This document shows, piece by piece, positions 20,135 to 62,854 of a DNA stretch of 64,000 bases. The translations under genes were made by a program, and so were the position numbers. Source of the DNA: an uncultured Candidatus Rokubacteria bacterium (GTDB taxonomy: Bacteria; Methylomirabilota; Methylomirabilia; Rokubacteriales; CSP1-6). Under the pieces are notes generated by a model. The model did not search any database, had not been told where the DNA came from, and saw nothing but the letters and a program-made list of their open reading frames with translations. Location of the stretch: positions 1 through 64,000 of the forward strand of contig CAWBMV010000020.1 in the NCBI GenBank assembly GCA_963789955.1, written 5' to 3'. The stretch's first letter is position 1, and each line of letters begins with the position of its first letter.

Positions 20135-20203
20135 ATCTGGCATACCCACCCGGTGCCCGTCGCGCTTGTGGGGCGTTAGAGACCGACAGGCGTTCCGGTC
20201 TCC

Positions 20204-20572
20204 TCACTGCTTGACCCGTTCGTATTCTGCTTTGCCGTAGGTGGTGTCCTCCGGCATCACCGTGAGAATGGTCTTGCCTTCATCTTCGGAAAGTCTCGCC
20301 GTCCCCGTCGTTCGCGTCGATCGATATCGCAGCTTGCCGTCTTGAAGATAAAATTGACCTTCGGACGTTGAGCCACGCGTGGTCGAGGCTATGTAGCTTC
20401 CGTCCGTCTGGACGTTCATGGTTGCGCGCTCGTCTCCCATCTCCGCTGTGACCCAGCCTCGCCAAGTTCCCGCGAGTTCCTTGACGTCTACGACCTGCTT
20501 TTCTCCGGCGACTCCATCAAGCGGGGACATTGCGAACACCGCGGCAACCACTAGAGCAAGATGCATCTTCAT
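20204..20572 (-). CDS. Small secreted protein; paralog of 50494-50868
   Basis: Signal peptide MKMHLALVVAAVFAMSPLDGVA; GEKQVVDVKELAGTWRGWV..FYLQDGKLRYRS shared with the paralog. Confidence 0.75.
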   Translation of the reverse strand: MKMHLALVVAAVFAMSPLDGVAGEKQVVDVKELAGTWRGWVTAEMGDERATMNVQTDGSYIASTTRGSTSEGQFYLQDGKLRYRSTRTTGTARLSEDEGKTILTVMPEDTTYGKAEYERVKQ

Positions 20573-20718
20573 CGTTGATCTCCTTCCGCCTGCCCGGAGG
20601 AGTTGGGCTCTCCCGCCCTGTAGCGGCGACCCGCTCTCGACGTTCCTTGCCAACGCGCAGTTTAACGAGCGCTCTATGCCTTGCCAACGCGTGAACAGCG
20701 CCTTCGAGCAGGTGGCCG

Positions 20719-22641
20719 TCACCGAAAAAGAGAACAACGAGCACCTGATTCCGACCCGTTGGTCTTCGATCGGCACCCCACTGTGACTATGGAATCAGAT
20801 CCCTCGATCGCGTGGCCGTCAAAGGTCTGGCCAGTGAGAGAAGCCGAGGTATTCCCACATTGGACGCCCGGTCTTGGGTCTTGAAGTGGAGGATCAAATC
20901 GATGTCCCCGTCTCCATCCACATCGTCCAGGGCGAGTGCACCGGAGTAGCTTCAGTGCCGGTTGCACCAAAGCGGACCGTCGCCGGATTTACAGTGGTGG
21001 CATCAACAGTCTCAGTCGTTAGGATGGCCACCGGGATCAGACCTTTGCTCCTGGGGTTGATGGGGTTGGGGAACCCGCGAGCTTTGTGTCGATGGTCGCC
21101 TCAATGATGATGCTTCTCAATAGTTGGGCAATGGCCTGCCGCAAATCAGGACGCGGGCCGATATGCTCTGCAGTGTTCCCCAACTGCGCGCTTCCCGTCT
21201 TCGCGAGCAACGTCCGTGCTTCCAAAGAAGTCAGAGGCCTGCCCAACTGCTGGAGCGCGACGCCCTGCAGGTTCGCAACCGCCCCTGATACGATCGCTGA
21301 AGCACTGGACGTGCCGTTAAAACCATTCCAATACCAAAAGTCAGGGTTAGTCGGCTCATCTGGATTCCGATACAGGAAACCGTATCCTGTCGTCATGACA
21401 TTGCTTCCCCACCCTTGCAGATCAACGCGGCTACCGAAGGTGGAGAATGATAGGCGCATGCGGTCAAACCCACTAGTCGGCGGTGCTCCTGCGCCCACGA
21501 TGATCGCTCCCGAGTCCCGCACGGTCCGATCGAAAACGCCGCCGCAAGAAGCTTGATCCAGGTCCACACTCCCATTTCCGGCTGCCTCTATTACCACAAA
21601 CCCATTCGCGACCGCGGCTTGAATCGCATTGAAAACCGAGAAAAGCGATTCGATCGGCCCAAAGTTGCCCGAATTGCATACGGGGAACTGTTGCTCAAGC
21701 AGGATTACATCTCCTGCTGAACCATCAGCCACCGCTAAGAGAATGGCATTGGCTGGGTTGTAAAATGAGTTCGCAGTGTTAGCAGGAGCTAAGCCAATGT
21801 CGGCACCCCAGGAAATGCCCGTAACGCCCTTCGCATCGTTATCTGCGATCAATTCGCCGAGCACGGCTGTCCCATGGTTGTTATCACTAAACGGATCGAC
21901 GGCTGAATCGCCCGCGTTCAATAGCAAGGGAAGTCCGTGGGCCTTGCTCAGGTCCTCATGCGCTTGGTTCCAACTGTATTCAACGTCATAGATCTTGATC
22001 GCGCTGCCGTTACCTCCCGGAATCGTAAAGGAATAGCGAGCATCAATGCCCCCGGGGGCAGCATCGAGGTAACCTTGATTCGCCGTGAAGTCGGGCGTGA
22101 TCCCCGGCGGTGGAGCTGGTAGGGGTGCGGGTTCTGCAATCTCGACACTCTGCAAATGCTTCAGATTCTCAAGGAAGGCAGAAGCATCGGTACCCGGTTG
22201 CAAGGTAATCTGAAACCACAGATTCAAGTCGAACAGGGTCCTGCCCGAACGGCTTCTTCCCCTAGCCCGTATTTCGTTTAGCTTGTCCTTCGGCAAGCTA
22301 AAAAGCCTGGCGATCCTAGCCGCTGAGCTACTAAGGCCCGGGCCCAGCACTATGTGGGGGTGATCCACATTGGTGCCTTCCCGAAACTTGACGTGGATGG
22401 TCTCTGACGAGTAACCAGGAGGAATTGGCGGCGGGCCGGCAGCGGCGGAAGAACTAGCTATGGTCATCAGTACCAGAGCCAACAGAAAGACGCCGAACAC
22501 CCTGATAGGTCCCAATCTCGAGGCACGTGCGACTGTCGACTGGGAAGCCATTCGAGTTAGGGTTAAGTGCATCGGAATTCTCCGTGGTGTGCCGAGCACC
22601 CTTGTTTCGGCTCCGTCCGCCCTAGGGAGCCTCGTTTGCAT
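20719..22641 (-). CDS. S8 subtilisin-like serine protease with prodomain and frameshifted C-terminal domain
   Basis: Catalytic motifs IYDVEY (Asp), NNHGTAVLG (His), AAGNG, FNGTSSASAIVSG (Ser). Beyond 21070 other frames give NPINPRSKGLIPVAILTT and DVDGDGDIDLILHFKT, ending near 20719. Confidence 0.85.
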
Positions 22642-22650
22642 CGCGTATCC

Positions 22651-23145
22651 TTAATTGCTTTTCACCGGCGGTGGGCTTGGCAATGGCGCGTATTGCGCCG
22701 ACTCCACACTGTCCAAATGCTTAAGCTCGCCAAGAAAGCGAGCGGCGTCCACATCGGGCTTTAGCGTGATCTGGAACCAGAGATTCAAGTCTGCCAGCCT
22801 CCTACCCGAGCGGGTTTCTCCCTTGCGCCGTATGTTCTCTAGTTCTTGTTCCGGCAGGCTGAAGAGCCGCGTGATGCTCGCCACCGAGTCTCTAAGGTCA
22901 ACCGGCAGCAGCCTTTCAGGAGCATCCACCTGAATACCTTCCCGAAACTTCACGTGGATGATCTGCGACGAGTATCCTGGCGATACGCTTTTTGTTGAGG
23001 GCTCCAACGTCCCTAATTCCTCTTCGATCTGGTTCCTCGCTTCCCGCCCAATGTCCCCTATTCCAAATCGATCGGACGCAGCACGCACCCCACCACCCGG
23101 ACACATCAAGATCGTAAGCATCGCTACAAAAAAACCCGTTCGCAT
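22651..23145 (-). CDS. Secreted stand-alone homolog of the neighbouring subtilase prodomain
   Basis: PGYSSQIIHVKFREG..RLFSLP..DLNLWFQITL..LKHLDSVE..APLPSPPP aligns with the S8 N-terminus; has its own signal peptide and stop codon. Confidence 0.8.
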   Translation of the reverse strand: MRTGFFVAMLTILMCPGGGVRAASDRFGIGDIGREARNQIEEELGTLEPSTKSVSPGYSSQIIHVKFREGIQVDAPERLLPVDLRDSVASITRLFSLPEQELENIRRKGETRSGRRLADLNLWFQITLKPDVDAARFLGELKHLDSVESAQYAPLPSPPPVKSN

Positions 23146-23952
23146 GACCCGACCCTACAATGACCCGCCGGGCGCCACGATCACGCCCCGGACGCCGATG
23201 GCAATCGCCTACGCATTATTACGTATGACCGATACGGCATCATCCAGCGACACCCACGGGGCACTCGGCGCAGGTCCGTCGCAGTCGAGGTCAGCAGGTA
23301 GAACGCGATGCCCCGACGAGCGCCTGGCGATGACGAGGCGTTCGCCCTCAATCAGAGACTCTTGGCGAGTGCCATCTGACGAAATGGGGCCAGGCTTCCC
23401 GCGGCGGTAGATTCCATCGGCCGGTATCCAGACTGTTGGGTTACCGGTGAAAGCGTAAAACTTGACCTGCTTGGCCACTTGGCCCTGGTTTTCGATGAAG
23501 GCCGGCCGTCGTTCGCCACGATGAGTTAGCGATCGAGCGTCATGCAGGGATTGAGTTCCGCCCATGTTCCAGTTCCGACTTTCAGACTGCCGGTGTTGGC
23601 GATCGCAAAGGGCGTTGAACTCGACCGACACTCGAGCCAGGAAGAAGTAGCAAAAGCACCAGCCCGAGTTCTAAAGCGCTCCGAGCAGCCCCGTGGATAT
23701 GCTGACGTAACACGGAGGAGGTGAACGTGTGGCACCTCGTTCAATACTGCTCGCCGCGAAAACTACTAGAAAAGAACTTACAGCCGAACCGGCTCAGCCG
23801 CGGACTCGAACTGGTAGCTCGGCTCCTTGGCCCTCGGGTGAGGAATCTGTCGGGACAGTGGCAGGAGAATGAGCGGTCGTCGCGTGCCTGTCAAGAGGAC
23901 GATGAACACTTGATGGTTACGGGCTCGTCCTCCGATGCTGTTTGCGGAGCGA

Positions 23953-24180
23953 CTACCGAGAAGGGTGGTGTACCAGCGCCCAGCCGGATTTCTGGAGGTC
24001 CGTCATGATGTCGTGACGGCGCCGCTCGCCGTGGCGGCGCTCAGGCGTCGCCCGTTGATGGATTCGACGACGATCCCCTTTCCGGCGGTCGAGGATCACG
24101 TGGTGCTCGCTCTCGCTGACAAGTTTCATGTAGTTATAGGTGCCTGGTTTCGTACGTGACACGATCAATTGAATCTTCAC
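23953..24180 (-). CDS. Small DRR-motif hypothetical protein
   Basis: LIVSR..VILDRRKGDRRR..ERRHGERRR..GWALV; resembles the N-domain of 17931-19187. Confidence 0.55.
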   Translation of the reverse strand: MKIQLIVSRTKPGTYNYMKLVSESEHHVILDRRKGDRRRIHQRATPERRHGERRRHDIMTDLQKSGWALVHHPSR

Positions 24181-24465
24181 GCCCGCATGCTCACGGCAGC
24201 GCGAGCGGGGGCGTTGGTCGCCGTTCGACTCGCTGGCGAAGAGATGATCGTCAGGCCCGAGGACACGCTGCGCGCGGCGGGCATCAGCACTACCCGACAC
24301 GCGCGATATCTGCGGCGAATGCCGAGTCCTGTGGCGAGGCGATAGCGCGCAGCCTCTTGGCATTCCACAGCTGGAAGCATTGGACGTGCAACTCGATAGA
24401 CCCCGGACCCGCGAGAGTGCTGCCCGTCATCACGAACTGAGCCATCGTAATGCGCTCCGGCAAAT

Positions 24466-24714
24466 CTACCGCCCGCGCCGACTCTCAAACATCCCGAACA
24501 GGAGGAGGACGAGGGCGGCGTCCCTGTCACGGTCCTCGACAACGCTCCGTCGGACTTCAGCGCCCGAGCCTGACACGACCGGCTCGGCGGCCGCAGGGAG
24601 CGCCTGACCAGCGTTCTCCAGACCGATAGTGAGGCCCACAGAACTCACGCCGGAGGATACGAGCAGCACGCTCACGATGGCGAGGATCACAGCGACGACG
24701 TCAAGGAACTTCAT
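24466..24714 (-). CDS. Small membrane/secreted protein; paralog of 25038-25307
   Basis: VAVILAIVSVLLVSS..ALPAAAEPVVSGSGAEV shared with the neighbour. Confidence 0.6.
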   Translation of the reverse strand: MKFLDVVAVILAIVSVLLVSSGVSSVGLTIGLENAGQALPAAAEPVVSGSGAEVRRSVVEDRDRDAALVLLLFGMFESRRGR

Positions 24715-25037
24715 TCTTTAGTCTCCAGCCAGATGGCACGCGACAATTGCGCCCGCCGGAGCTCGAAGTCAACCGGCTAACAGTCGTACGTGCTTCGTAC
24801 CTATGACTCATGAGCATCATCCGACGTGGTAGGTGGTCCTCGTGGAGTGAGGCCGATAGGCCATGCCCCAGGACTTACGTCGCTTTTAGCGCCTCCCACG
24901 CCGCCCGCTGCGTCGCGCGCCACGGCGTACGCGCGCATCCGGTGCCGGTCGTGCTCGTCGGCGAGTGCTCCATCCCCGTCGTATAGAACGTCGCGCCGCT
25001 CAAGAAGGTCGCGGGATTGCCCTTGACCTTGACGCTC

Positions 25038-25307
25038 TCAGCGGCGCCCACCGTCTCCCAACATTTGGAGCAGGAGGAGGATGCCGAGGGCGTCCCTTTT
25101 GTCACGGTTCTCCTCGACGCTCCGTTGGACTTCAGCGCCCGAGCCTGACACGACCGGCTCGGCGGCCGCAGGGAGCGCCGGACCGGCGTTAGCCGGGTCG
25201 AGCGCGTGACCCACAGGCACCAGGTCGGAGGATACGAGCAGCACGCTCACAATGGCGAGGATCACAGCAACTCCGAGGAACCTCCGCGCTCGAGTTGTGA
25301 GGTTCAT
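25038..25307 (-). CDS. Small membrane/secreted protein; paralog of 24466-24714
   Basis: GGAGG SD; same conserved blocks as its paralog. Confidence 0.6.
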   Translation of the reverse strand: MNLTTRARRFLGVAVILAIVSVLLVSSDLVPVGHALDPANAGPALPAAAEPVVSGSGAEVQRSVEENRDKRDALGILLLLQMLGDGGRR

Positions 25308-25744
25308 GGTCGTTTCTCGCCTCCTCCCGCGCGTAAGGTAGTGCTTCTCGCATGCCAACAAGAAATCCGCTGGAAAACGCACGGCTTTCAACGAGAGCTG
25401 GCGCGTAGCGATAGGTACGGGTGGAGGCGTCGCCGCCTCAGTTGAGGCGGTTGGTCCGCTGCAGGAGTTTGCAGAAGCCGGACGCCACGGACGGGACGAC
25501 GATCTCGCGGGACGCGCCGACCTCGACTCGACCTAAGCGGGTTGTACCGAGACCCCCGCGCGTCGCGTGCCACGGCGTGCGCTCCCACGCGGTGCCCGTC
25601 GCGCTCGTCGGCGAGTGCTCCATGCCAGTCATGTAGAAGGTCGCCCGCCAGCCGCGCTCGTCGTGGCGAACGTTCGGCATCAGCCTCGGCCGGAGGCCGT
25701 CGGCTGGATGCCGTGGTTCGACCCCGTGAAGCCAGCCCCGTTTC

Positions 25745-26119
25745 CTACAACTGGCCAAAGGCCGGCTCGGTCTCCAGGAATAGGTGGTTGCGGCCCGGCA
25801 AGGCGACGAAGCGGGCGCCGGGGATGCCGGCGGCCATGCGGCGCCCGGTTTCGAAGGGGACCTGGGCATCATCGCGCGCGTGTAGCGGGTTCTCTTGGCC
25901 CCAGCCCAGGCGTAGCCCGAGCACAGTGACGGTCTGGCCCTCGATCCACCCGAGCTTCCGCAACTCCTGGCGAAACTGGTCGAGAGCTGGGAGCAGGTCC
26001 GCGGACGGCAGTCCCGCAAGGATGCCGATTCCAGGTACCTGCCGCTCCTGGGCTACGGCGACGAGCGGTGCAAGAGTAAGACAGAGAATGAGAGTGAGAA
26101 CGAGCCCGATCAGCCGCAT
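25745..26119 (-). pseudogene. Chimera of an ABC substrate-binding 5' fragment and an alpha/beta-hydrolase C-terminal fragment
   Basis: MRLIGLVLTL..FRQELRKLGWIEGQTV joined to LHARDDAQVPFETGRRMAAGIPGARFVALPGRNH. Confidence 0.65.
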
Positions 26120-26499
26120 GAGCACCTCGTGGAGGATGGCTGGCGGAGTCTAGCTGAATACGCGGTGGTGCGTCATGCAGCTTTCTTTGCCGCGTTGTCG
26201 AACTGAACGCACATGGCCCACGGCATACCGTCACGGACGTGGATTCGTATGCTCACCACGCCTGTAGCGTGATGGCTCATCACCTCGCCCAGGAGGTCGA
26301 GGAACGCACCGCCGTCGAAATTCCTTTCGTGCTCCATAACTCGCCCTCACAAGCTACTCACGTCGGACGGGCACCGCATGGTTGGGGATGGCTGGCGGGA
26401 AGTCTAGCAGACCTCTTGGCGTTCGGGCTCGGGGCCCGGAGTTGGCCGCGTCGGTCGAGCACGGGCTATTCGATCACTGGTCCGTCCGCTTGCAGTACC

Positions 26500-26893
26500 T
26501 CAGAGCCAACGCCGCACCGCCTCCGCCGTATCGCTCGGCTTCGTGTTGAAGCACAGCTTGGCTTGAGGAGCGTGTTCATGCACGACGTTGACGAGCTTCT
26601 CAAATAGCAAGAACTTGCTTGGCATCGTGCGTATGCCTGCCCCGATGAGGACGCAATCGAAGAGCTTCTGCTTGAGTTGGCTACGAACAACTGCCTCAGC
26701 AGTTTCACCGAAGTCGGTTATAACACATTTGCACGTCATAGCCGAGGCGAGACAATTCGTCCTCCGAGGACTTGAGGCCGGCTAGTACCTTGGTGGCGTC
26801 CAGGCCCAGGCCCGTGGAAGCGTAGTCGGGGTGCGAGAAGTCAATCAGTGTTGGTTCCAGACCAATCACAAGAACAGTTTTCTTGTCTGTCAC
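26500..26893 (-). CDS. Conserved hypothetical protein (one frameshift), lying between the 5' and 3' ends of an ABC SBP gene
   Basis: GGAGG SD; KTVLVIGLEP..LGYDVQMC then TDFGETAEAVV..FDCVLIGAGIR..FEKLVNVVHEHAPQAKLCFNTKPSDTAEAVRRWL. Confidence 0.7.
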
Positions 26894-27081
26894 AACTACC
26901 TCCATCTAGAGCGAGTTGACCACGACACATCATTACGCCGGGCTCCTGTGCTTCAGCAGCGAGCGGCGCGAGAACGAGGCTGAGAGCGAGAACGAGCCCG
27001 ATCAGCCGCGTGAGCCCGTCGATGGGATGGCTGGCGGAAGTCTAGCAGACCGGAATTTACCCTCGCGCGAGGGGCCAAAAA

Positions 27082-29350: not shown

Positions 29351-29437
29351 CGGTCTCCCCTTTGCCGCTTTCACGGCCGCGGCCGAGGACAGGCTAGGCG
29401 AACGCGTCCGCCTGGGCAAGTGAGCGGGCTGGAGGAT

Positions 29438-30890
29438 TGTCGGGAGTACATGATCTGTCCGCTCCCGAGAGCAAATGATCTGACCGCTCCCAGCCGGCAG
29501 CCGGGCTGTCATGCCCACCGAGGAGGTGGGGATGACCTACACCCAGGCTGCAGTGGAGCGGGCCGTGAAGGTTCACGAGGTGCTTATGCAGGCGCTCAGC
29601 GGACGGCAGCCCTGGATTCACGTGGCGGAGGTGTTGGGCGTCAGCGCTCGCACGGTGCGGCGGTTGCGCTGGCGGTACGAGCAGTACGGGTTCACCGGGC
29701 TCTACGACCACCGGCCGCGCACGCCCTCGCCGCGGGCGGTGCCGCTGGCCGAGGTGCAGCGGCTGCTCGCGCTCTACCGCGACCGCTACGGACCGCGCGA
29801 CGGGCACCCCGGGTTCAACGTGCGGCACTTCTATCAGATCGCCCGGCGGGAGCACGGCGTGCAGGTGTCCTACTCGTTCGTGAAGACGGCGCTGCAGGCG
29901 GCCGGGCTGGTCCCCAAGCGGCGGCCGCGGGGCGGCATCGGCGCGCCGCGCGCCCTGCTTCGGCGAACTGCTGCATCTCGACGGCAGCCGACATCAGTGG
30001 CTCGCGCTCGTGCCGGACACCTGGCAGACGCTCATCGTCGTCGTCGATGACGCCACCAAGCGGCTGCTCTACGCCCAGCTCGTGGAGGACGAGGGCGGGC
30101 GAGAGCACCGCGGTCATCATGACGGCGCTGTGGACGGTGCTCGAGACTCTACGGCATCCCCGGGGCGCTCTACACCGACCGCGCGGGGTGGGCCGTCTAC
30201 ACGCCGACCTCGGGCACCGCCCCCGATCGCAGCAAGCTCACCCAGGTGGGCCGCGCCCTGGCCCAGCTCGGCATCGAGCACATCGTGGGCTTCTCGCCCC
30301 AGGCGCGCGGCCGCAGCGAGCGCGCCAACGGCACCCTGCAGGGGCGCCTCGTCAACGAGCTCCGGGTGGCCGAGATCCGCACGGTGGCCGCGGCCAACCG
30401 CTATCTGCGCGACCGGTTCATCCCCGATTACAACGCCAGCTTCGCTCACGCCCCCGCCGATCCCACGAGTGCCTTCGTCCCCGTCGGCCGCCATGACCTC
30501 AATCAGATCCTGTGTCACGAAGAGGAGCGCGTGGTGGCGCGCGACAACACCGTCCGCCTCGACGGCGTGTTCTTGCAGATCGACAAGCAACGCGGCCGCC
30601 GCAGCTGCGCGAGCCTGCGCGTGCTCGTGCGCCGGCATCTCAATGGCCAGCAGTCCGTGTGGTGGGGGCCGCGGTGTCTCGGCCGTTACACCGGCGACGG
30701 CCGGCTCCTACCACCTCGTTCTGGGAGTACCGACATAGCGGCCCCCTGCGCGATCGCGCCTCCTGGGGCCAATACGCGCGTGCCCCCTCGACACGCTCGC
30801 ACGAATCGGGGCCGTCGTCGGCGCCCCGCCTCGGTTTAAGCGGACAGATCACGTGTCAAACACGAGCGGTCAGATCACTTGTCAACGACA
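29438..30890 (+). mobile_element. IS element, IS1202-like (ISNCY) DDE transposase, frameshifted
   Basis: Ends TGTCG..TGATCTGTCCGCTC and GAGCGGTCAGATCA..CGACA, each with a second internal copy of the repeat. Transposase motifs GELLHLDGS, VVDDATKR, YTDR, SPQARGRSERANGTLQGRL. Flanked by GTGAGCGGGCTGGAGGAT at 29420-29437 and 30891-30908. Confidence 0.9.
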
Positions 30891-50868: not shown

Positions 50869-51014
50869 CGCTGATCTCCTTATTCGTCTGGTGAAGGTTA
50901 CACGAGTCCCTCCAGGTGCGTAGGGCATGGAGAGCGCGGTCGCAGGAAGCCATGGAGTAGGTCGCGAATCCAACTACTGACCCGCAGAAGCTGGCCGCGT
51001 TGGTCAAGCACGCG

Positions 51015-52602: not shown

Positions 52603-53154
52603 ATGAAGCGCATGAGACCGGCGGGGTACTTGCTCGCCGTCGTGCTCGGCCTCGCGGTCGCGGGTTGTGCGACCTCGTTCACCCCAGAGCGCGTGCGGAG
52701 CGAGATCGCGGCACAGACGGGCACGGACCCGCAGTACGTCTTCGAGATCCAGCTCGGGCGGGTGACGATGCGCATCATCCAGACTGCGCTCTCCGGCGGC
52801 GGGAGCTCCCTGCCGCTGGCCGGGCTCACGGGATTCGACCTCGCCTTCTACGACGTGCCCGCGCTCAGCCCTCAGGGTGCTTCGCTCGACTTCACCAAGA
52901 TGGCAATTCGAGGCTGGGAGCCCGTGGTCCGCGCGAGACAGCCAGGGTACTCCGTGCTCGTGCTCGTGCGCGAGGGTCGCGCGACCATCGATGACCTGGT
53001 CCTGCTCGGCGCAGGCGGCTCGAGTGCGATCTATGCGCGCCTTAGAGGGACCCTGAGCCCCGACCTGCCGCGCGCCCTCGGCGACGCCTTCCAGAGCCGG
53101 GGCCCCGAGGGTCTCCGGGACGAGCTGGTGGGGGAGCTCACCCGTCCGCGCTGA
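52603..53154 (+). CDS. Lipoprotein of unknown function
   Basis: Lipobox LAVAGC after a hydrophobic core. Confidence 0.7.
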   Translation: MKRMRPAGYLLAVVLGLAVAGCATSFTPERVRSEIAAQTGTDPQYVFEIQLGRVTMRIIQTALSGGGSSLPLAGLTGFDLAFYDVPALSPQGASLDFTKMAIRGWEPVVRARQPGYSVLVLVREGRATIDDLVLLGAGGSSAIYARLRGTLSPDLPRALGDAFQSRGPEGLRDELVGELTRPR

Positions 53155-53380
53155 ACAGCCCAGTGCGACGCCCAGTGGGCTCGATCCGCTCACCCCAACC
53201 CGAGGCCCTCGCCCTTGGGTGCGTTGGTCACGGGGGAGGAGCTCGCCACAGCACAGGAACGTGCGCCGGTTCATCATTCGATGACCTGATCCGCTCGCAG
53301 GAGCACCTGCCATGAGGGCGATGCCCGCAGGAGCGTGGCCACCGTTCAGCCTCTCGCCCACGCCCGCTGGCTAACGACAG

Positions 53381-53550
53381 CGAAGAGAACTAGACTCTGT
53401 CTGGGCTGAACAAGCCATGCAGCAGCTGGCGGTACCCCGGCTCGTCTTCGGTGGAGCGGTTGCCGCGCATTGCGGTAGGGCTTCGCGTGGCGTCCCGTTC
53501 GCGGGTCGTCCTGAGCCGCAGTCCACTGAAGCCGTGGCCGTCCAGCCTCC
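53381..53550 (-). repeat. ~170-bp dispersed repeat; inverted copy at 62331-62500
   Basis: Shared core GGCTCAGGACGACCCGCGAACGGGACGCCACGCGAAGCCCTACCGCAATGCGCGGCAAC. Confidence 0.85.
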
Positions 53551-53662
53551 CGTTAACCTCGGTCGGCTCCTCAAGATCGGTCTCGGGCCAACGCTCGGGG
53601 GACTTCTTGAGCCTTCCGCTGGAGCGGTGATTACGACTTTCTGCGAGAAGGAGGTGAACTGA

Positions 53663-53914
53663 ATGAAGAACCTGATGATGGCTCTCGCGATGGTGGGCTT
53701 GGTGGCGGGGCCGGCGTTCGCCAACCAGTGCCCCAGCCTGATCAAGCAGATCACGGACGCGACCACGGGCAAGACCGACCCCGCCTCCAAGAAGGCGGTG
53801 GCTCTGGCCAAAGAGGCCCAGGCACTGCACGACGCCGGCAAGCACGCCGACTCGGTCAAGAAGGCCCAAGAGGCTGCCGCGGCGATCAAGCTGCAGTTGA
53901 AGATGAAGGAGTAA
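53663..53914 (+). CDS. Small secreted helical protein
   Basis: AAGGAGGTG SD; signal peptide ending AFA; NQCP..HDAGKHADSV. Confidence 0.8.
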   Translation: MKNLMMALAMVGLVAGPAFANQCPSLIKQITDATTGKTDPASKKAVALAKEAQALHDAGKHADSVKKAQEAAAAIKLQLKMKE

Positions 53915-53924
53915 TGCTCGAACT

Positions 53925-53967
53925 TTCCCGGGGGTTAACCCGCCCCCGGGGAACTAAATTAATTTAA
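53925..53967 (+). terminator. Probable intrinsic terminator hairpin
   Basis: CCCGGGGG..CCCCCGGG stem followed by an AT-rich tract, just after the stop codon. Confidence 0.55.
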
Positions 53968-54091
53968 TCCGTGCTCCAGGAGGGCTCGCCGTCCTGTCGG
54001 AATAATGCGCCACCAGGGGGCGCGACGGTTGCGGTGCCGCGAGCGCCTCCCGCCTAAGTCGTCGCCGCTCTTTCTTCTTCATGCCAATGAT

Positions 54092-54355
54092 TCACTTCCC
54101 CTTCGGCCCACGCGGGTCCACGGTGTCGGGGAGGCATTGCCACCTGATGTCTGCGCTTTGTCCCTGCTTCAGCACGAGACCGGTTGCCTCAAACGCGGCC
54201 TTAATCTTTGGAGTCCAAGCGCCGACGATGTTCCCATTGACCGTGGGCGAAGCTCGAACCCACAGTACCCACGCGCACTCGGCGTGGATCGTTGCGGCCG
54301 AGGTGAGCAGGGAGAGGGTGAGGAGCAGGCCAGCGTGTCGTGCGAGTGATGTCAT
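54092..54355 (-). CDS. Secreted DTVDPRGPKGK-family protein
   Basis: LLLTLSLLTSAATIHAECAWVLW..WQCLPDTVDPRGPKGK. Confidence 0.72.
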   Translation of the reverse strand: MTSLARHAGLLLTLSLLTSAATIHAECAWVLWVRASPTVNGNIVGAWTPKIKAAFEATGLVLKQGQSADIRWQCLPDTVDPRGPKGK

Positions 54356-56175
54356 GGCTTCCCTTCTTCCACCTGCTCTATCTTCCTCTTCAGCGCGTCG
54401 AGATCCTGATCCTGGAATTCGAAGATCATTTCGTTGAACTCGCCCTGACGGTATTGATAGACGCCCAGACCTCAGGACCTGCAATTGGAAAGGATGGCGG
54501 AGGGTATGGTGCTCTCGGAATTTGATGGTCATGCTGCACCTCCTCGGATTCCGGAAAGAAGGATATCGCGCGATGGTGAGCTTCGCCTACTTGACCCGCT
54601 GGTTGGTCACCCCGTCTCCCCGGGCGAGCGAGGCCGATATAACCGGCCGATTCTTCTGACCACTCACTGATGGCATCCGGATTGAAGGGTCGGTCTCTTC
54701 GGCGTCGAATGCTCCCGACATTCTCCAACGCTTCACAGGAGGAACCATAGTGCCGGTAAGTCTGAGTTTCCTCAATCGGAGAACGATCAACAAACAAGTC
54801 TGCCGAGTCTGCCACGCGTTTGCCGAGTTGAAGACCGAACGACTGTGCGGTGATTGCACTCGAATCAAAGCGCAGGTCAGCTTGCGCTTCTCCGATGCCG
54901 TCCGCGGGACAATAGCGATTCCAGCAGAGCAGCAATGTAAACGTTCTGGCTGCCTATGCGCCGCGTGCGACGGGAGAACTCTTGATCTTCACCCGCTCTA
55001 CCTATTCGATCTTGCACGAGCAGACCGACGGGAGATCCACTTGCATCCTCGATGTCACGAGTTGTGGTTAGAGGCCGCGCGATTGGGCACCCGTCCGGCA
55101 CAAGCCATCGACATTGATCTGGGGTGACAAGTCCGATACAGCCAACGGGAGCCGTAGGGGAGCGGTCATCGTTTACCCGTCTCGGTCGCTCGCTTCACGC
55201 TGACGCGCTCGTGGGCACCCCATGTCCGTAGCTCGTGGGACTCGGGACGGCCAACTCTCTGGATGCGAACGCGTGCGTTCTTGCCGCCGCCAATCGTGTA
55301 AGGTCGCCCGACCACTTCCCACTCACCAGTCTCGTCGGCAATGCTGATCACCCATCTGGAGTTGCATGGGGAGGATGCGAGATGTCCCGGGCGGCGGGGG
55401 TGGCGGCATACCGGGGAGTTGAGGCTGGACGGGCTTGGCCTTCGCTTTCTTCCCGGGCCGTGGCTTAGCCACTCCCCCGGCGGCTGGCCGGCGAGGCAAA
55501 CGGGACTCCTAGTGACTCGCGATCCATTTGAATAGTCGGATGTTTGTGGAGGGGCGGCCACTGGGCCTCGACGTCGACCGGACGCCAACCAGGGCCGAGG
55601 AAGGCTCCCTTCCTTTTTAGGAGCGTACGAAACGGCGACGAGCCCCCTCCCTGCGCTCTAACTGAAACCTGCCCTTCGTCTCTGGCACATACTGCCGCAC
55701 CATCATTGGCGCGCACCGCGCGTGCCAGGTGATCTCGCACTTCTCGAACTTGGACGGGCTGCCGCAACAAATCGTGATGATCGGATCTTCCGGCGCGATA
55801 ACCAAGTTGCATTTGCGGCACTTCAACACCATTACCCCCATCACCTTCTTCGCCGCAGGCTCGCCGTCCGTTCGTCGGGCGATACGAGGACGGCTCCGAT
55901 GACCTGCGTGGACCGACGCGAGCGTAGCCGATACCTCGCAGCGGAACCAGGGTCGCGGACGCCAAATACACAACTCCGCACGCCAGGTCGCTGCACGTGA
56001 CACGTGGACCGAGGTGCTGTCTCTCCCGGGGGCGGTGGAGGAAACTTCCGAGAGCAGCCGCTATGTTATGCCCGCGAGCAGGACTTTTGTGCTTCCTACG
56101 CGCTCGCGGCCGTCCTGCCCGCGCGAGCCCGGGCGCGATGGTATAAGCTGCTTACTCCAAGGAAGGGCAAACGCC

Positions 56176-57129
56176 ATGTTTGAGAACCTCAAGCAGCTGG
56201 TGCAAGGACGTTCGAAGTCGGCCGTCCGGCGGCGCTTCGACGAGCGCCAGCCGTACAACCAGGACGATCCGAATCGGGTGCTACAGCTGTTGTTCTTGAA
56301 GCTCCTTATGGCGGTGGCGGCATCCGACGCTCAGGTCACGCCCGAAGAGCTCAATCTGCTGAAGGACTTCGCCTTCGAATATTCGTTGACGGAGCAGGAG
56401 TGGGCGGGGATCCAGTACTACGCCAGCGCGCATCTCTCGAAGGCCGAGCTCGACGAGCTGATCAAAACGGTCGCATCGGAGATACGCAGCCGCGCGGATC
56501 GAGAGCAGTTCGAAGGAGCCATCAGGGAAATGGTGGCGGCGGACGGCATCCTCGGCGATAGAGAACAGGAGATCGGGGACATCGTCCACGCCGACGTGCA
56601 GCGCGTGCACGCATCGAGGGCCGCCTACGTCTACAAGACCCTGCGAGTCGCTTGGCGCAACACGCTGTCGCTGCCCGGGGCTGTAGCGGCCCTGGAGGAG
56701 GAGGCGAAGGAGTACGGCCGCAATCCTGTTGCCGCGCTGCTGCGTCGTGAGGCCGGCACCTCGTCGGGTGGCGAGCTTGCCGGCGCGAAGGTCGGCCTGA
56801 TGCTGATGGTCATGCGGTCCGACGAGTCGATCGATCAACGAGAGACGGCGGCATTCACCGAATACGTCGCGCAGGAATGCCGGCTCGGCCCCGAGCCCGC
56901 CGCGCGCCTCGTCAAGAGCCTCTTCGAGATCCCGGAAGGGCTGCTGCAGCTCGCGTACTTAGCCCGGACGCTGGTCGATGGACTGAGCGCGCCGGAACGG
57001 CAGGACTATTTCGCGCGGCTAGTCACGATCGCCCGGGCCGACGGCGTCCAGGTCTTCGAAGAGCGCCACACCCTGGGCATCATCGCCAAATACCTGTACG
57101 TCACGCCCGAGAGGCGGTCGCAGCCATGA
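56176..57129 (+). CDS. TerB-like tandem-domain protein
   Basis: [54 protein letters not shown]. Confidence 0.8.
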
Positions 57130-57184
57130 CGACTCCCGAGTCCGTCTACGACGTGGTGTGGCCGCTCGCCCCCTCCGCCGCGCC

Positions 57185-57344
57185 GCCATTTTGTAGACAG
57201 GACTCTCAAGGTGCCGAGCCCGCAGATTTGCCCGTCGAGCAGCCAACGAAGTTCGAGCTGGTGATCAATCTCAAGACCGCCAGGGCGCTCGGCCTGACGA
57301 TCCCGCAGTCGGTGCTGCTGCGGGCGGACCAGGTGATCCAGTAG
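57185..57344 (+). pseudogene. ABC SBP C-terminal remnant
   Basis: [44 protein letters not shown], then the first bases of ORF X. Confidence 0.8.
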
Positions 57345-57425
57345 CGCGTGCTCGTGCGGCGCGATGCTGGCGCGCGTCGTGGCGTTCAGCTAGACTCCCC
57401 GCCAGCCATCCCCACCGAGGTGCGC

Positions 57426-58406
57426 ATGCGGCTGATCGGGCTCGTGGTCGTTCTCGCCCTCAGCCTCACGCCTGCGCCGCTCGTCGCGGAGGCGCAGTTG
57501 GGGAAGGTTCCCCGCATAGGTATCCTGTGGGCCTATTCCCCGCCTGTCGTCTCGCCGTTCGCCGAGGCATTTCGGCAGGGCCTGCGCGGCCTGGGCTATG
57601 TGGAGGGACAGAACATCGTCCTGGAGGAGCGGTGGGCGGAAGGCAGGTTTGATCGCCTCCCTTCCCTCGCGGCCGAACTGGTCAGGCTCAATGTTGACAT
57701 CATCGTGACGGCGTCGACGCCAGCGGTTCAAGCTGCCCAGCAAGCAACCAGGACGATTCCCATCGTCATGACGCTCGTTGCCGATCCTGTGGAGAGCGGC
57801 ATCGTCGGCAGCCTCGCGCGACCTGGCGGGAACGTGACTGGGTTGAGTCTCATGCACCCGGAGGTCAGCGGGAAACGCTTGGCCCTGCTCAAGGAGGTCA
57901 TTCCCAAGCTCTCCCGGGTGGCTGTCTTCTCGAGTTCCTCCACGGCATCCTATCGAGTGGTGCTGCGCGAGACAGAGGCCGCGGCCCGAGCCCTGGGAAT
58001 GCAGCTTCAAGTCGTGGAAGTGCGCGGCCCTGCCGACCTCGACGGCGCATTCTCAGCTATTACCAGAGATCGTGTCGGTGCTCTCGTTGTGCTGCCGGAT
58101 CCAATGTTCCGAAATCAGCAAAGACGGGTCCTGGACCTCGCGGCGAAGAACCGGTTGCCGGCAATGTACTGGTCGAGGGACCTCGCAGAGGCGGGAGGCC
58201 TCATGGCGTACGGGGCGAACTTTCCTGACGTATGCCGGCAGGCCGCCGCCTTCGTGGACAAGATCCTGAAAGGCGCTAAGCCGGCCGAACTTCCGATCGA
58301 GCAGCCTGTGAAGTTCGAGCTGGTGATCAACTTGAGAACCGCGAAGGCGCTCGGACTGACGATTCCGCAGACACTGTTGCTACGGGCGGACCAGGTGATC
58401 GAGTAA
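57426..58406 (+). CDS. ABC transporter substrate-binding protein (ABC_sub_bind type)
   Basis: Family motifs, preceded by the conserved leader. Confidence 0.92.
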   Translation: MRLIGLVVVLALSLTPAPLVAEAQLGKVPRIGILWAYSPPVVSPFAEAFRQGLRGLGYVEGQNIVLEERWAEGRFDRLPSLAAELVRLNVDIIVTASTPAVQAAQQATRTIPIVMTLVADPVESGIVGSLARPGGNVTGLSLMHPEVSGKRLALLKEVIPKLSRVAVFSSSSTASYRVVLRETEAAARALGMQLQVVEVRGPADLDGAFSAITRDRVGALVVLPDPMFRNQQRRVLDLAAKNRLPAMYWSRDLAEAGGLMAYGANFPDVCRQAAAFVDKILKGAKPAELPIEQPVKFELVINLRTAKALGLTIPQTLLLRADQVIE

Positions 58407-58408
58407 CC

Positions 58409-59290
58409 ATGCTCGACCGACGCAGCCGGGGGCTTGTCACCGAACATCCGCGTGGCTGGGTACTTCGGCTTGCGCTTGGCTGGGTGCTTCTTGCTGCTCC
58501 GTCATCGGCCTGGGGGCAAGAGACTGCGTTCGGACAACTTCGAGGACCGAGCCTCTGGGATGATCTCAGCTATCTGGGTCACACCACCTGGGAAGATGCC
58601 AAGACGATAGCTCTCGCACCACTCGAAATCGGCAAGGTCCGGGAGGTGACGACTGAACAACTGATCATCGCCGCGCTCGTTGTCGGCAGTGTCGGCGGCA
58701 TGATCGGCCTTGATGGCAAGATTCGCGACGCGGCACAGGGCATCGATCATGGCGCGGCGCTCACGCTTGAGAACGTTGGGTTCGGCCTGTTGGGAGGGGG
58801 GATGGTCGCTCTCTACGGGACCGGCTGGTGGACGGACGACGAGCAGAAGCGACACGCCGCCCTGACCGGGCTCGAAAGTACTGCAGTAGCGTACGGTGTT
58901 GCCAACCTAATGAAGGTCACCTTCGGGCGGGAGCGGCCGGACTCGGGCCAGGGGCCTTTAGCGTGGTTTCAGGGTGGGAAATCCTTTATCTCCGGAGATG
59001 CGACCCCGGCCTTCGCGCTGGCCGAAGCCGTCGCAGCCGGGTTCGATCACAGATGGGAAGTGACCCTTCCGGCCTATCTTGCCGCTACCGCGGTTGGCGT
59101 AGGGCGCATCGGGTTGGATCGTCATTGGGCCTCGGACATTCTCGCGTCCGCATTCGTGGGGATCGGGACGACGGCGCTGTTCAACTACATCCATCGCCAT
59201 CGTGAGCGTGAGCAGGCCACTCCGCAGATAAGCATTTCCCCGGTGCTAGGGCCGCATGAGTACGGCCTCTGCGTCAATGTCGTGTATTGA
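58409..59290 (+). CDS. PAP2 (acid phosphatase/haloperoxidase) family protein; first codons derive from ORF X
   Basis: KVTFGRERP, SFISGDAT, GRIGLDRHWASDI; begins MLDRR like ORF X. Confidence 0.85.
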   Translation: MLDRRSRGLVTEHPRGWVLRLALGWVLLAAPSSAWGQETAFGQLRGPSLWDDLSYLGHTTWEDAKTIALAPLEIGKVREVTTEQLIIAALVVGSVGGMIGLDGKIRDAAQGIDHGAALTLENVGFGLLGGGMVALYGTGWWTDDEQKRHAALTGLESTAVAYGVANLMKVTFGRERPDSGQGPLAWFQGGKSFISGDATPAFALAEAVAAGFDHRWEVTLPAYLAATAVGVGRIGLDRHWASDILASAFVGIGTTALFNYIHRHREREQATPQISISPVLGPHEYGLCVNVVY

Positions 59291-59408
59291 GGGAACGCCG
59301 CGTTAGGGCTGGCTTCCACGAGTGGCCTTCGGCCCTGACTGACCAACGTGGCCAACTCTTGCGTGCGGCTGTCGGCTTCGCCGGGTGCTTCCTGCGATAG
59401 GATTCGAT

Positions 59409-59765
59409 TCAAGGGTTCTGTGGTTCGGCCGGAAACCACGGGCTCACCAGGTAGATCTCGAATGCCTGGATCCGACGGCTGGGCCGCCGAATGTAGCCTA
59501 CGATCCGAACGTACTCGTTCCCGCGAAATCCGTGGTAGTCGCTCTGGCGAATGCGGTGAAGGTCGATGGTGATGGCCGGGGTGCCGTTGGCCGGTGCCAG
59601 CGCCAACGTTTGGCTACCAAAGTCAACCCAAAGGACGCGCCCGTCGATGATCAGCGGCGGCTCTGGCACGGTCGGTGGCTGGGACGCCACGTCCGAGGCG
59701 AGGATGGCCAAGAGCAGGCCGACGATGACGACGCTCGACACACGCGCCCGATGGAAGTCGTTCAT
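59409..59765 (-). CDS. Secreted hypothetical protein
   Basis: Hydrophobic N-terminus; IDGRVLWVDFGSQTL. Confidence 0.55.
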   Translation of the reverse strand: MNDFHRARVSSVVIVGLLLAILASDVASQPPTVPEPPLIIDGRVLWVDFGSQTLALAPANGTPAITIDLHRIRQSDYHGFRGNEYVRIVGYIRRPSRRIQAFEIYLVSPWFPAEPQNP

Positions 59766-59887
59766 CGTCCCCACGCTCTCCCGGCGACAGCATTGCGAGG
59801 TTAGGCATTCCCGAGCCTGCTGCTGACGAAATCGTAGCCGATGGACTACCGTAACGGGGACGGATGGCAAATCCAGGCCATGACACC

Positions 59888-60157
59888 ATGCCCGCCTACG
59901 ACCGCGCGCTCCACGCACTGCGTTCCTGGCTCGACTCCTGGTCCGGCATCGGACACGTCGCCGTCGGCATGGCGCATCAGGGCTACGACCTCCAGCTGAC
60001 TCAGTACGACGATCGCGGCGGGCGCGCCACGTTTTACACGACCGGGATGGAGCACTCGCCGACGGGCGCGACGGGCACCGGCTGGGAACGCACGCCGTGG
60101 CACGCGACGCAGCGGGCGGCCCGGGAGGCCCTGAAGAAGGCCGCGGCTAACCCGTAG
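59888..60157 (+). repeat. Scaffold ORF X, 5'-truncated copy
   Basis: MPAYDRALHALRSWLDSW..ERTPWHATQRAAREALK. Confidence 0.85.
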
Positions 60158-60423
60158 TGGCAGGCAAGCAAGAGCTATACGCGATCTACAACCAACAACT
60201 TGACCTACTACTCTTGTCTCTCGACAAGCGGAAGCCGCTCGACGCCAGGATTGGCAGCGCAGCAAATACCCTGAATCTCGCGCTGCGAGAAGTTCGACGA
60301 GAAGTACCGTCCGCAGTGGCCGCCGGCATGTCCGACCTGTCGGAAGACAGCACCGTGACTGAACTCATCAGTCATGCCGCCACGCTGAAAGCTATCCTGT
60401 ACACGTATCTGTATGGGGGCTAG
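60157..60423 (+). CDS. Hypothetical protein
   Basis: Overlaps the ORF X stop; 8 nt from the next gene. Confidence 0.5.
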   Translation: MAGKQELYAIYNQQLDLLLLSLDKRKPLDARIGSAANTLNLALREVRREVPSAVAAGMSDLSEDSTVTELISHAATLKAILYTYLYGG

Positions 60424-60431
60424 AAACGACG

Positions 60432-61151
60432 ATGCCGGACGAACAGAACGAGATTCGATCTGAGATCTCCGATCTCCTCGACGCGATGCGACCCATCGCG
60501 CTGAGGCATCCCGACACACCGATTCGGCAAGCGTCGGATGTGTTCGAAAGCCTTCTCAAGCGCGCGAAGCGAGCGTTCCCGGAATCACGCGCGGTCGCCG
60601 ACATGACCAGCGGATTACTCGGAGGCGCTAGCCACACTTCGCTCGTGGCGAAACTCGTTGCCCTCAAGGCAGCAACGGGAGGTGGCATGGCCGTCGAAGT
60701 TCCGGCCATGAAGGTGACGCGCGAGGGTATCTTCTTCGCAGGGCAGTACTTTGATGCCTACCAGCGCATCACAGAGATCCTCGACGAGGCGGAATCGAGC
60801 GTGGTGCTTATCGACGGCTACGTCAGCCCAAAGATCCTTGATCTCTTGTCGGGCAAAGACGCTTCAGTCGCCTGTACGGTTCTGACGAAACAGGTCTCAG
60901 CTACTCCGGTTCTTCGCGTAGCCGTAGGGGCTTTCAACGGGCAGTACGGCGGCTTGGAAGTTCGAATCACCGAGGCATTCCACGATCGCTTCATCGTCAT
61001 CGACGACAAAGAGTTCTACCACTTTGGCGCGTCACTGAAAGATGCTGGCCACCGTGGCTTCATGTTCTCTCGGATAGAGGAGAACGCCGTTATCGGCCCG
61101 CTCAGGACGGCAATCCAGGCTGAGGTGGCTAGGGCACCGCGATTCAGTTAG
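60432..61151 (+). CDS. Protein with C-terminal PLD-like (HDRF) domain of the type found in ORF6N/RhuM proteins
   Basis: EGIFFAGQYFDAY, VVLIDGYV, FHDRFIVIDDKEFYHFGASLKDAG. Confidence 0.72.
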   Translation: MPDEQNEIRSEISDLLDAMRPIALRHPDTPIRQASDVFESLLKRAKRAFPESRAVADMTSGLLGGASHTSLVAKLVALKAATGGGMAVEVPAMKVTREGIFFAGQYFDAYQRITEILDEAESSVVLIDGYVSPKILDLLSGKDASVACTVLTKQVSATPVLRVAVGAFNGQYGGLEVRITEAFHDRFIVIDDKEFYHFGASLKDAGHRGFMFSRIEENAVIGPLRTAIQAEVARAPRFS

Positions 61152-61241
61152 ACTCCGGACCGCCATTCACGCGCGCGCGGGCCATCGAACCCGCGCCACC
61201 TACCTCGCGGCTACGATCCCGAGGCCTGTAAAATAACGACG

Positions 61242-61555
61242 GTGATCCGCCAGTACACTCCGATGGCCCCGACGCTCGTCCGCGCGCCCTTCCACCGCCC
61301 CGGCTGGATCTACGAGGAGAAGGTCGACGGGTACCGCATGCTGGCCTACAAGGACGGCGCCCGCGTCCGCCTGGTGAGCCGCAACGGCGTCGACCACACC
61401 CGCCGCTACCCGGACGTCGTGGCCGCATTCGCGCAGCTCAAGCCCTCGACGCTGGTCCTCGACGGCGAGCTCGCGGTGTTCGACGACCAGCTCCGGTCCC
61501 GGTTCGAGTGGCTTCGCGACCCGGACGAGTCCGTGGTCGCCACGCCGCCGCTGGC
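61242..61555 (+). pseudogene. ATP-dependent DNA ligase (LigC/LigD-like) N-terminal fragment
   Basis: PMAPTL, WIYEEKVDGYR (KxDG), LVSRNG, LVLDGEL; truncated after TPPL. Confidence 0.85.
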
Positions 61556-61595
61556 GGCGGACGATCAGCGTGGCGCCGTCGCGCGGGGCAGCGCG

Positions 61596-62138
61596 ATGAC
61601 GGAGGACCGGGCGGAGCACTGGGAACATCTCGCGCGTTCGCCAGTCGCATGGCTCATCAGCGCGGACAACATGAGGAGCTGCGCCGAACTCATCGGCCGG
61701 TGCTTCGTGGCCGATCTGATGTCTCCTCCAGCAGGGAAGATGACCAAGGATGTGGAGCCCATCTCCTTTGGCCCCATCTTCCAGATGCTCGCGGGATACA
61801 CGGTTGAAGCGCTCCTCAAGGGCATAATCGTTGCCCGGCAGCCCGGGTTTGTTGCCGGACGGCGGCGGCTGCCGAACTGGTTTACAACGCACAACCTTGA
61901 AGGTCTTCTGAGTCGAGCGGGAGTCCAACTTGACGACGCCGATCAGGCCTTCGTCCGGCGACTGGCCGTCAATGTCGTCTGGTCAGGTCGATACCCGGTG
62001 TCGACGAGCGCGGACGACATGGAACGCCATAAGTTCAGCTCTTCCGCCGATCTTGCTCGGTTCCGCCGCCTGTACGAGGAGCTAGTGCGCGTGCTCCAGA
62101 GGGAGATGCGGGCAGAAGGTCGTCCCGCCACACCATAA
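61596..62138 (+). CDS. HEPN-like hypothetical protein, in frame with the ligase fragment
   Basis: MLAGYTVEALLKG, THNLEGL, WSGRYP. Confidence 0.55.
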   Translation: MTEDRAEHWEHLARSPVAWLISADNMRSCAELIGRCFVADLMSPPAGKMTKDVEPISFGPIFQMLAGYTVEALLKGIIVARQPGFVAGRRRLPNWFTTHNLEGLLSRAGVQLDDADQAFVRRLAVNVVWSGRYPVSTSADDMERHKFSSSADLARFRRLYEELVRVLQREMRAEGRPATP

Positions 62139-62854
62139 CGGTAAGTTGAACACCGACGCCCGTCTCCGGCATCCCTGCCTCCGCACCAACCGCGTCCTGC
62201 GCGAAATCCTGCGCGAGCGATGGAGCGTGGAGGCGTGGCCGCAGGTTAAGGCCCAGTTCGTGAAGGCACTCGCGCTCAGGAGCGAGATCCGCCGCGCCGG
62301 GTGGTTCAACTAGCGATTAACGTCTTGAGGGGAGGCTGGACAACCACGACCTCAATGGACTACGGCTCAGGACGACCCGCGAACGGGACGCCACGCGAAG
62401 CCCTACCGCAATGCGCGGCAACTCCTCCATCGAAGACGAGCCGGGCTACTGCCAGCTAACTGCGTGGCTCGTCCAGCCCGGGCAGAGTCTAGCTCTCTTC
62501 GGGGTCATTCGCCAGCGGGCCTGGGCGACGGACTGGACGGCCACGCTCCTGCGGGGCATCGCCCACGTGGCAGGAGAGGCCGGTGTAGGAAGAGCCTCAT
62601 CAGATCCCCCCATTTCCGGAATGGCTCAGATTGTAATAGGAACTTTGGGTCCTAGATAGTGCTGGCGCGAGTCCGGGCGTTCGGCTAGACTCCCGAACGG
62701 TTCCGCGCCATGGCGGCTTGGTGCCATCGGGGCGGCCGCAGATCTGCAGCGGCTCAAATCACGAGCGGGGGCGGAGGTGAGGACAGAAGCGACAGCAGAT
62801 GGGGGAGGGATGCAACGGGGAGTAAGAACCCAATTCAACACGAAGGAGCCGCGT

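Follow-up and report, generated by a model that had tools for sequence, protein, structure and literature searches.

The window analysed here comprises 64,000 nucleotides, namely positions 1–64000 of contig C20 (CAWBMV010000020.1) in the genome of an uncultured Candidatus Rokubacteria bacterium (G000; 6.77 Mb in 38 contigs, 87% complete, 5% contamination). Between 20140 and 62500, repeats of 70–94% identity are found on both strands by self-BLAST of the window. Profile searches resolve this part into 10 pieces of open reading frame (ORF) X, 7 TAGACT leaders, 6 copies of ORF C, 6 pieces of genes for ABC-type substrate-binding proteins (SBPs), 4 of ORF W, 3 pieces of a DNA ligase gene, 3 of gene G and 2 att arms. 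Short stubs of X around 20163, 26475 and 58397 emerge from motif scans as well, bringing X to about 13. A single small operon probably underlies these repeats, its decayed and reshuffled copies being carried on mobile elements of one family that insert at tRNA genes. The initial annotation of the window had described the parts as a scaffold reused for gene capture. Its copy numbers (about 12 for X, 6 for C and at least 7 for the leader, the last two matched exactly), the local order of the parts and the positions and strands of four runs (36720–33891 and 52095–48154 on the minus strand, 42690–47700 and 57350–62313 on the plus strand) are borne out, and the same parts are also seen in related genomes and in independent metagenome contigs. 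Below, C20, C22, C34 and C37 denote contigs of this genome, and L-numbers denote loci fetched from other genomes or metagenomes.

The SBPs belong to PF04392 and the ligase to PF01068. A block of 120 nt covering the upstream region and 5′ part of the SBP genes is conserved across copies and is called the cap. It reads as a −10-like box, a ribosome-binding site (RBS) and a signal peptide, of which the TAGACT leader would be the −10 box and RBS; the leader has no Rfam match as a known RNA.

Tandem tRNA-Lys islands

A tRNA-Lys(UUU) gene lies just past the window (contig 66843–66918, minus strand), and its 3′ half of 45 bp is repeated exactly (100%) at 33891–33935 and 48154–48198. The region therefore consists of two tandem tRNA-Lys islands of 18.7 kb (island 1) and 14.3 kb (island 2). 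Each contains two runs, which face outward to the att ends of the island; the four runs, initially taken for separate elements, are the arms of these two islands. The features of the window are as follows.

20145–27052, minus: older debris 3′ of tRNA-Glu, with V carrying an X end, X halves, three caps and one unit of cap, cargo and SBP tail (26438–27052)
33557–33808, plus: Z copy, just outside attR of island 2
33891–48198: island 2, 14.3 kb, without integrase and without left arm repeats
33891–33935, minus: attR core of island 2, tRNA-Lys(UUU) 3′ half, 45 bp, 100% identical to the tRNA gene
33936–34125, minus: right att arm of island 2, in which arm-type repeats TTGCGCTGA are paired at 34104 and a hairpin precedes the anticodon loop
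34129–34274, minus: ORF C copy, about 55 residues, no family
35869–36238, minus: SBP stop, ORF X (3′ end broken) and the last ligase codons
36242–36721, minus: C, W remnant, putative promoter/RBS cap and SBP signal peptide; SBP body deleted
38073–42569, plus: inter-arm cargo of island 2, a subtilase with Calx-beta repeats (Pfam)
42647–44313, plus: W remnant, cap, intact PF04392 SBP (42804–43784), intact X (43788–44111) and an internal ligase fragment
44790–46199, plus: M23 peptidase gene with an in-frame fusion to the C-terminal tail of an SBP, followed by intact X (45876–46199)
46955–47709, plus: end of G with the linker, and C interrupted by module S, which has a 94% identical copy at contig 64394–64792
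48154–48198, minus: att core between islands 1 and 2, tRNA-Lys 3′ half
48154–64000: island 1, window part, continuing on the contig to the integrase (arm-type repeats in its 3′ end) and attL at tRNA-Lys(UUU)
48199–48394, minus: island 1 right att arm, whose arm-type repeats are at 48367
48395–49210, minus: R, G (secreted, ending in DTVDPRGPKGK), linker and C
50377–51011, minus: X split by gene V; the same split in L046 and L067, hence inherited
51015–52160, minus: W remnant, cap and intact PF04392 SBP
54092–55472, minus: Z (possible EF-P domain I-like barrel) and a G copy, with cargo between them
57096–58406, plus: SBP tail, W stub, cap, intact PF04392 SBP and an X start stub
59337–60157, plus: X 5′ stub, an inserted gene on the opposite strand and the remainder of X
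61233–62313, plus: OB-less ligase, interrupted, with unrelated sequence running on from the break, and intact C after it

No integrase had been noted initially because the window ends before it. A tyrosine integrase gene occupies contig 65687–66838 (plus strand) and ends 5 bp from tRNA-Lys, both lying 1.7–2.9 kb beyond the window end. It matches PF00589 at contig 66227–66700 (E 1.8e-34) with the catalytic motifs present, and carries two frameshifts in this assembly, in which other window genes are broken as well. The reported lack of a reverse transcriptase stands, with no PF00078 match in this genome at its 87% completeness. As expected of integrase islands, a paired 9-bp repeat, TTGCGCTGA, forms arm-type sites at both arms of island 1, at 66796 in the 3′ end of the integrase gene and at 48367. 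In island 2 the right pair, at 34104, is the only one left, the integrase and the left arm having been lost. The elements are integrative and share an ordered backbone, as first proposed, with att repeats, arm-type repeats and ordered parts all found.

In 9 arms, taken from this genome, its relatives and metagenomes, the same right arm is followed by the 3′ half of one of six tRNA types, with anticodons read by eye: Lys(UUU), Lys(CUU), Leu, Arg(UCU), Arg(ACG) or Asn. The integrase beside the window is 95% identical to that of L026, which targets tRNA-Asn, for 500 nt and about 60% identical thereafter, which amounts to a domain swap. The GC content of the islands is 0.64–0.66 as against 0.69, and their coding density is 0.49 as against 0.82 in the core. 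They sit between genes for a putative protein resembling a bacterial proteasome activator (window 32485–32943) and a putative proteasome-type AAA ATPase (contig 68033–69631). The core block at tRNA-Glu is syntenic in 9 of 10 loci of relatives, and no att repeat for this tRNA was found when looked for. An att arm with a tRNA-Arg half also occurs on a 2.5-kb contig filed under Gemmatimonadales (L043), by misbinning or transfer.

It is scarcely credible that chimeric assembly or mixed-strain binning made the repeats. The genome is incomplete and shows some contamination, but the copies differ by 6–30%, both att cores are exact, and the same junctions recur in other genomes as well as in metagenome loci that were assembled separately.

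The backbone operon

The backbone is a translationally coupled operon with the order C–W–(promoter cap–SBP)–X–Z–(G or ligase)–C. Outside the contig of the window, 124 of 177 consecutive same-strand pairs follow the order given in the initial annotation (W, leader, SBP, X, ligase, G, C, att arm) and 53 do not, 21 of the latter being wrap-arounds from C, G or ligase to W, leader or SBP. In 2000 label shuffles, 50% of pairs are in order on average and 60% at most; the order there is thus not random. The genome was also taken together with 110 loci, leaving out 15 near-duplicates as well as own-genome and core LigD loci; here, neighbours within 120 bp are on the same strand in 153 of 165 cases. 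Within this distance the two directions are counted 27:6 for leader–SBP, 20:0 for SBP–X, 13:0 for ligase–C, 9:0 for W–leader, 6:0 for G–C and 4:0 for C–arm. The part order is cyclic or tandem, and L072 shows one complete cycle, 3.6 kb from C to C, in which starts and stops overlap. Ligase and the DTVDPRGPKGK gene (G) had been placed in series; they are instead alternatives before C, no ligase–G pair being found within 1500 bp in the genome and the loci of relatives. The motif RGPKGK belongs to a translated linker before C that is common to G, ligase, K and unrelated DNA. Another part is contained in 53 of the 80 metagenome loci picked for ligase alone (some near-duplicates among them), and C directly follows ligase in 15 of the 64 ligase-picked loci with room.

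The ratio of nonsynonymous to synonymous substitution is 0.17 for X, 0.28 for ligase, 0.40 for C and 0.26 for Z. By these values the parts are real genes, and the small genes of the backbone were under purifying selection. Among near-full copies, 19 of 39 for X and 17 of 33 for C are intact.

A further explanation holds that the parts are integron cassettes shuffled by IntI in trans. Integron integrases over the TIGR02249 cut-off occur in 9 of 17 genus genomes, the one of this genome being broken and on another contig (C22:276412), with none near the window; in L157 and L158, some SBP genes have canonical attC sites on their flanks. However, between the parts at 19–67.5 kb, a pattern-and-fold scan that finds canonical attC at true integrons detects no canonical site, leaving one weak one-strand candidate inside an X fragment. 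In addition, the parts overlap by start and stop codons, and insertions fall inside genes. This explanation is therefore very improbable and, for the window, already largely refuted. In several of the loci C22:276412–282037 and L147–L160, PF04392 genes lie downstream of intI on the same strand.

Proteins of the backbone

The ligase would represent an unusual, stripped-down family of ATP-dependent DNA ligases of the LigC/LigD type. The full-length family has about 207 residues and 833 clusters at E < 1e-20 among 1211 candidates. Among 120 listed proteins, motifs I, IV and V are present in 117, 98 and 89, respectively, and 108 are 190–230 residues long; the end lies a median of 20 residues past motif V, with 80 of 89 stopping within 30 residues. 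The profile matches the Mycobacterium tuberculosis LigD ligase domain (1VS0) at E 2.5e-25 over residues 22–194 of 310, and because the match is limited to these residues, the ligase lacks the OB domain. It thus shares nucleotidyltransferase (NT) motifs I, IV and V with the LigD-type domain and with the LigC and Lig E minimal ligases as treated in excerpts of PMC7470946, but stops soon after motif V. In the same excerpts, NT plus OB is described as the minimal scaffold and the OB domain as essential for DNA joining. Every island ligase copy in this genome is broken. Phage ligases are 32–36% identical to the island ligase among the matches listed, and the predicted complex of ligase and C scores 0.02.

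The model of Z is an SH3/KOW barrel, and its six best structural matches are domain I of EF-P or eIF5A (Z-scores 7.1–7.8, root-mean-square deviation about 2, 59–63 residues). Z may thus have an EF-P domain I-like fold, with a model pLDDT of 63 and with Z-scores under 8, which may mean only a common fold; it has no Pfam or PDB sequence match. Neither Pfam nor PHROG holds a family for X, C, G or Z. The structure model of X (pLDDT 63.5) has no fold match, and its nearest named cluster, Phage_ABA_S (0.85 on 16% of members), offers no more than a lead. C has no named family. G proteins (window 48559–48924 and 54092–54388; L141) keep a signal peptide, an ECAW motif and a CLPD tail around a highly variable interior, and four G tails stand in a row in L141.

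The SBPs are orphans, as had been suggested initially. For 40 SBP matches, no permease of branched-chain or sugar type is found within 7 kb, and an ATPase lies within 3 kb of 1. This does not fit an ABC transporter operon, in which the SBP would lie beside a permease and an ATPase; the orphan SBPs are probably passengers of the backbone.

Putative promoter caps and mosaic genes

Third-position identity is 0.76 in the cap (0.35 at random) as against 0.39 in the SBP bodies (0.32 at random), with 19 of the 35 genes capped, suggesting that the bodies are near saturation while the cap has been homogenised. Between the paralogues at 42.7 and 52 kb, the caps share 91% identity over 187 bp and the bodies only about 50%, so that the caps are more alike than the bodies would permit, and two SBPs are 97% identical through the body and diverge inside the C-terminal block. 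A full SBP body follows 15 of the 38 caps; unrelated ORFs are in frame with at least 4, and most others run into truncated SBPs or short frames. Fusions of the cap in frame to DUF3300 and NAGPA proteins have been confirmed, and one cap stands before a gene that has a start of its own. Micro-homologies of about 9 nt mark both joints of the DUF3300 chimera. One cargo gene with the same SBP-tail anchor has a cap upstream here and C upstream in L024.

Gene capture via the parts is only partly supported. The view of the parts as landing pads holds for good single cases, namely the cap fusions and the apparently homogenised cap, but not for cargo ends taken globally (see below). No dedicated capture enzyme has been found in the elements. 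The elements also appear to be without transfer functions of their own, as had been assumed: the VirB4 family is found in 0 of 17 genus genomes, and no relaxase exceeds the cut-off among the island proteins scanned, relaxase families not having been searched genome-wide. RecT, present in 2 of 17 genus genomes, is absent from this one. Structural, terminase, primase and capsid genes are absent from the 26 and 44 island proteins scanned. This genome has two Ku genes.

Distribution in the genus

The element family belongs to one Rokubacteria genus. In this genome, 68 of the 88 matches to parts other than SBPs fall in 3 clusters totalling 86.5 kb, and a second tandem array is found at tRNA-Ala on C37. 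Clustering at tRNAs is confirmed in part: 7 of 16 part clusters lie within 15 kb of a tRNA as against 2.9 at random (p = 0.015), but one cluster on C34 is far from any (see below). X is present in 16 of 16 other genus genomes, with up to 44 matches each, and in 26 of all 41 genomes searched. Its relatives number 3184 at 90% clustering and 2767 at 50%; like those of the att arm, they carry the label Candidatus Rokubacteria or Methylomirabilota. In relatives, whose loci were picked on X or integrase matches and give no frequency, the parts stand beside several integrase families and tRNAs. A 430-bp stretch in L012 (9700–10250) contains only X and its own promoter-like site; the palindromic site where it lies is unoccupied in this genome (C22:96508–96522), and the stretch has a short duplicated motif at its ends.

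Probable mechanism of mosaicism

Integration at tRNAs, tandem accretion, a conserved operon and mosaic products are observed. They are probably best explained by tRNA-targeted tyrosine-integrase elements with a repeated operon, which are reshaped by host homologous recombination in conserved blocks and by rare micro-homology joins, the backbone being a passive scaffold and not a capture machine. The elements insert at tRNA anticodon loops and pile up in tandem. Many operon copies at 70–90% identity coexist in the cell and the population, and therefore crossovers between tandem, neighbouring or incoming islands would fall inside the most conserved blocks, namely the cap, the SBP C-terminal block, the C linker and the integrase N-terminus. 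Homologous recombination of the host between copies would proceed by way of RecA or transformation. Rarer micro-homology joins might place unrelated genes in or between parts, the chimeras being subsequently inherited and spread; the joined products are observed, and micro-homology joining presumably made them. Homology-facilitated illegitimate recombination in transformation needs one homologous anchor and is a possible model for such joins. Transfer between cells by transformation or a helper is the likeliest guess. With this passive homology and an occasional role as donor of a promoter or secretion tag, the backbone would act like phage boundary sequences.

Several results weigh against this account. 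Shared cargo segments end at parts in 10 of 50 cases as against a background of 0.196 (p = 0.53), which is no enrichment. The polyphyly of capped SBP bodies was significant at first and falls to p = 0.059 after 8 borderline or near-duplicate rows are dropped. Micro-homology is seen in one chimera, whose stand-in donors are 84% and 70% identical. No excised form has been seen, and no attP joint occurs among the joints listed; the best read run contains 0.23 of the words, and contigs piling on the parts come mostly from other organisms and are not used as evidence of excision or expression. ComEC and DprA are present in 5 of 5 genomes and also in 10 and 11 of 14 controls, and so carry little weight. 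In some other genomes, intact single X genes occupy core chromosomal sites, so that parts exist outside islands. No tRNA lies within 137 kb of the C34 cluster (915152–934276; 19 kb, 12 matches), which also lacks an integrase and terminal repeats.

The lack of enrichment at cargo ends also favours pure decay, in which the parts would be leftovers of one ancestral element, a prophage or satellite, that was repeatedly integrated and eroded by deletion, with the order inherited and nothing captured. The low coding density of the islands and the share of broken X and C copies point the same way, as does the insertion of V in X, which is one old event inherited three times; such single insertion events count against capture as well. 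However, homogenisation of the cap over saturated SBP bodies and in-frame cap fusions would need exchange and not loss alone, thousands of X relatives exist, and assembly indel noise inflates the broken counts. A phage or plasmid parent was looked for and rejected, X, the arm repeat and the ligase alignment being absent from viral contigs and X from plasmids. Decay as the whole explanation is thus unlikely.

At the other extreme, the operon might be a selected device for capture and display. The ligase together with host Ku would join foreign DNA into the element, the cap would turn it into an expressed, secreted protein, and SBP bodies and G interiors would be diversified on purpose. The conserved ligase that travels with the operon (its motifs and substitution ratio are given above), the caps in frame with unrelated ORFs or before a gene with its own start, the micro-homology junctions, and 13–69 PF04392 matches per genome as against 1 of 14 control genomes are in its favour. 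Nevertheless, all island ligase copies in this genome are broken, the OB domain that the ligase lacks is the one described as essential for joining (PMC7470946, excerpts), most caps not followed by SBPs run into short broken frames, and cargo does not end preferentially at parts; such a device is quite unlikely. It is likewise doubtful that the operon is an evolved gene-trapping and diversification cassette, in which the ligase, completed by a small partner or host Ku, would seal foreign DNA into the island at micro-homologies and the cap would have the trapped piece expressed and exported. If true, this would be an integron-like capture without a site-specific cassette recombinase and a source of Rokubacteria genome heterogeneity.

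Comparison with known systems

The elements follow an island logic that is known. They fit the definition of tRNA-targeted integrative islands and fall outside those of the integrative and conjugative element (ICE), prophage and integron. Additive flexible genomic islands, as outlined in part of PMC5217437, likewise have an integrase at the tRNA end, a duplicated tRNA 3′ half, tandem accretion, variable cargo and lower GC. In contrast to these, the islands here have in common an operon that is repeated within them, broken up and rearranged; a single att arm goes with six tRNA types, and the parts are also met beside other integrase families and at a site without tRNA. SXT/R391 ICE hybrids (PMC2786100, in part) resemble them in combining a conserved backbone with variable cargo and in that copies at the same site recombine into hybrids, whereas here the conjugation ATPase VirB4 and, in this genome, RecT are missing, and the backbone is an operon of 3–4 kb repeated within the element. 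In lambdoid and mycobacteriophage mosaicism, as covered in portions of PMC3029335 and PMC3945230, short conserved boundary blocks similarly join different neighbours and diverged copies exchange; unlike phages, the elements examined show no capsid, terminase or replication genes and have no relative among viral contigs.

Rokubacteria genomes are described in sections of PMC5712423 as highly heterogeneous, with many integrases and prophage-like genes. No description of the element family was found in the papers searched, and PMC7305173 contains nothing relevant to it; Supplemental Table 4 of PMC5712423 (integrases and phage genes) may be relevant to how new the family is. Among tandem tRNA-targeted integrative islands, those described here stand out by boundary-sequence mosaicism with a reshuffled operon. 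The family, its att arms and its backbone are now defined for Rokubacteria, which are abundant soil bacteria. Some of the orphan PF04392 binding proteins, of which each genome has tens, are thereby linked to the family, as are thousands of clusters of hypothetical proteins. Three protein families become testable: the OB-less ligase, the stand-alone barrel resembling EF-P domain I, and X.

Other features

A separate element of 6.8 kb at the 5′ end of tRNA-Val (C37:193430–200261) has an intact integrase and small phage-like genes. The subtilase cargo of the window includes a gene at 21037–23145 with a duplicated N-terminal module, and the one at 38073–42569 has eight Calx-beta repeats. At 35210–35660 (minus strand), three tandem ORFs of 40–52 residues, each with a leader-like stretch and a shared HNET motif at the end, lie directly upstream of a TPR protein (34305–35168); they look like precursor peptides of a modified-peptide system. 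An insertion sequence-like transposase gene at 29394–30890 is frameshifted, and a related copy is found at C22:249684.

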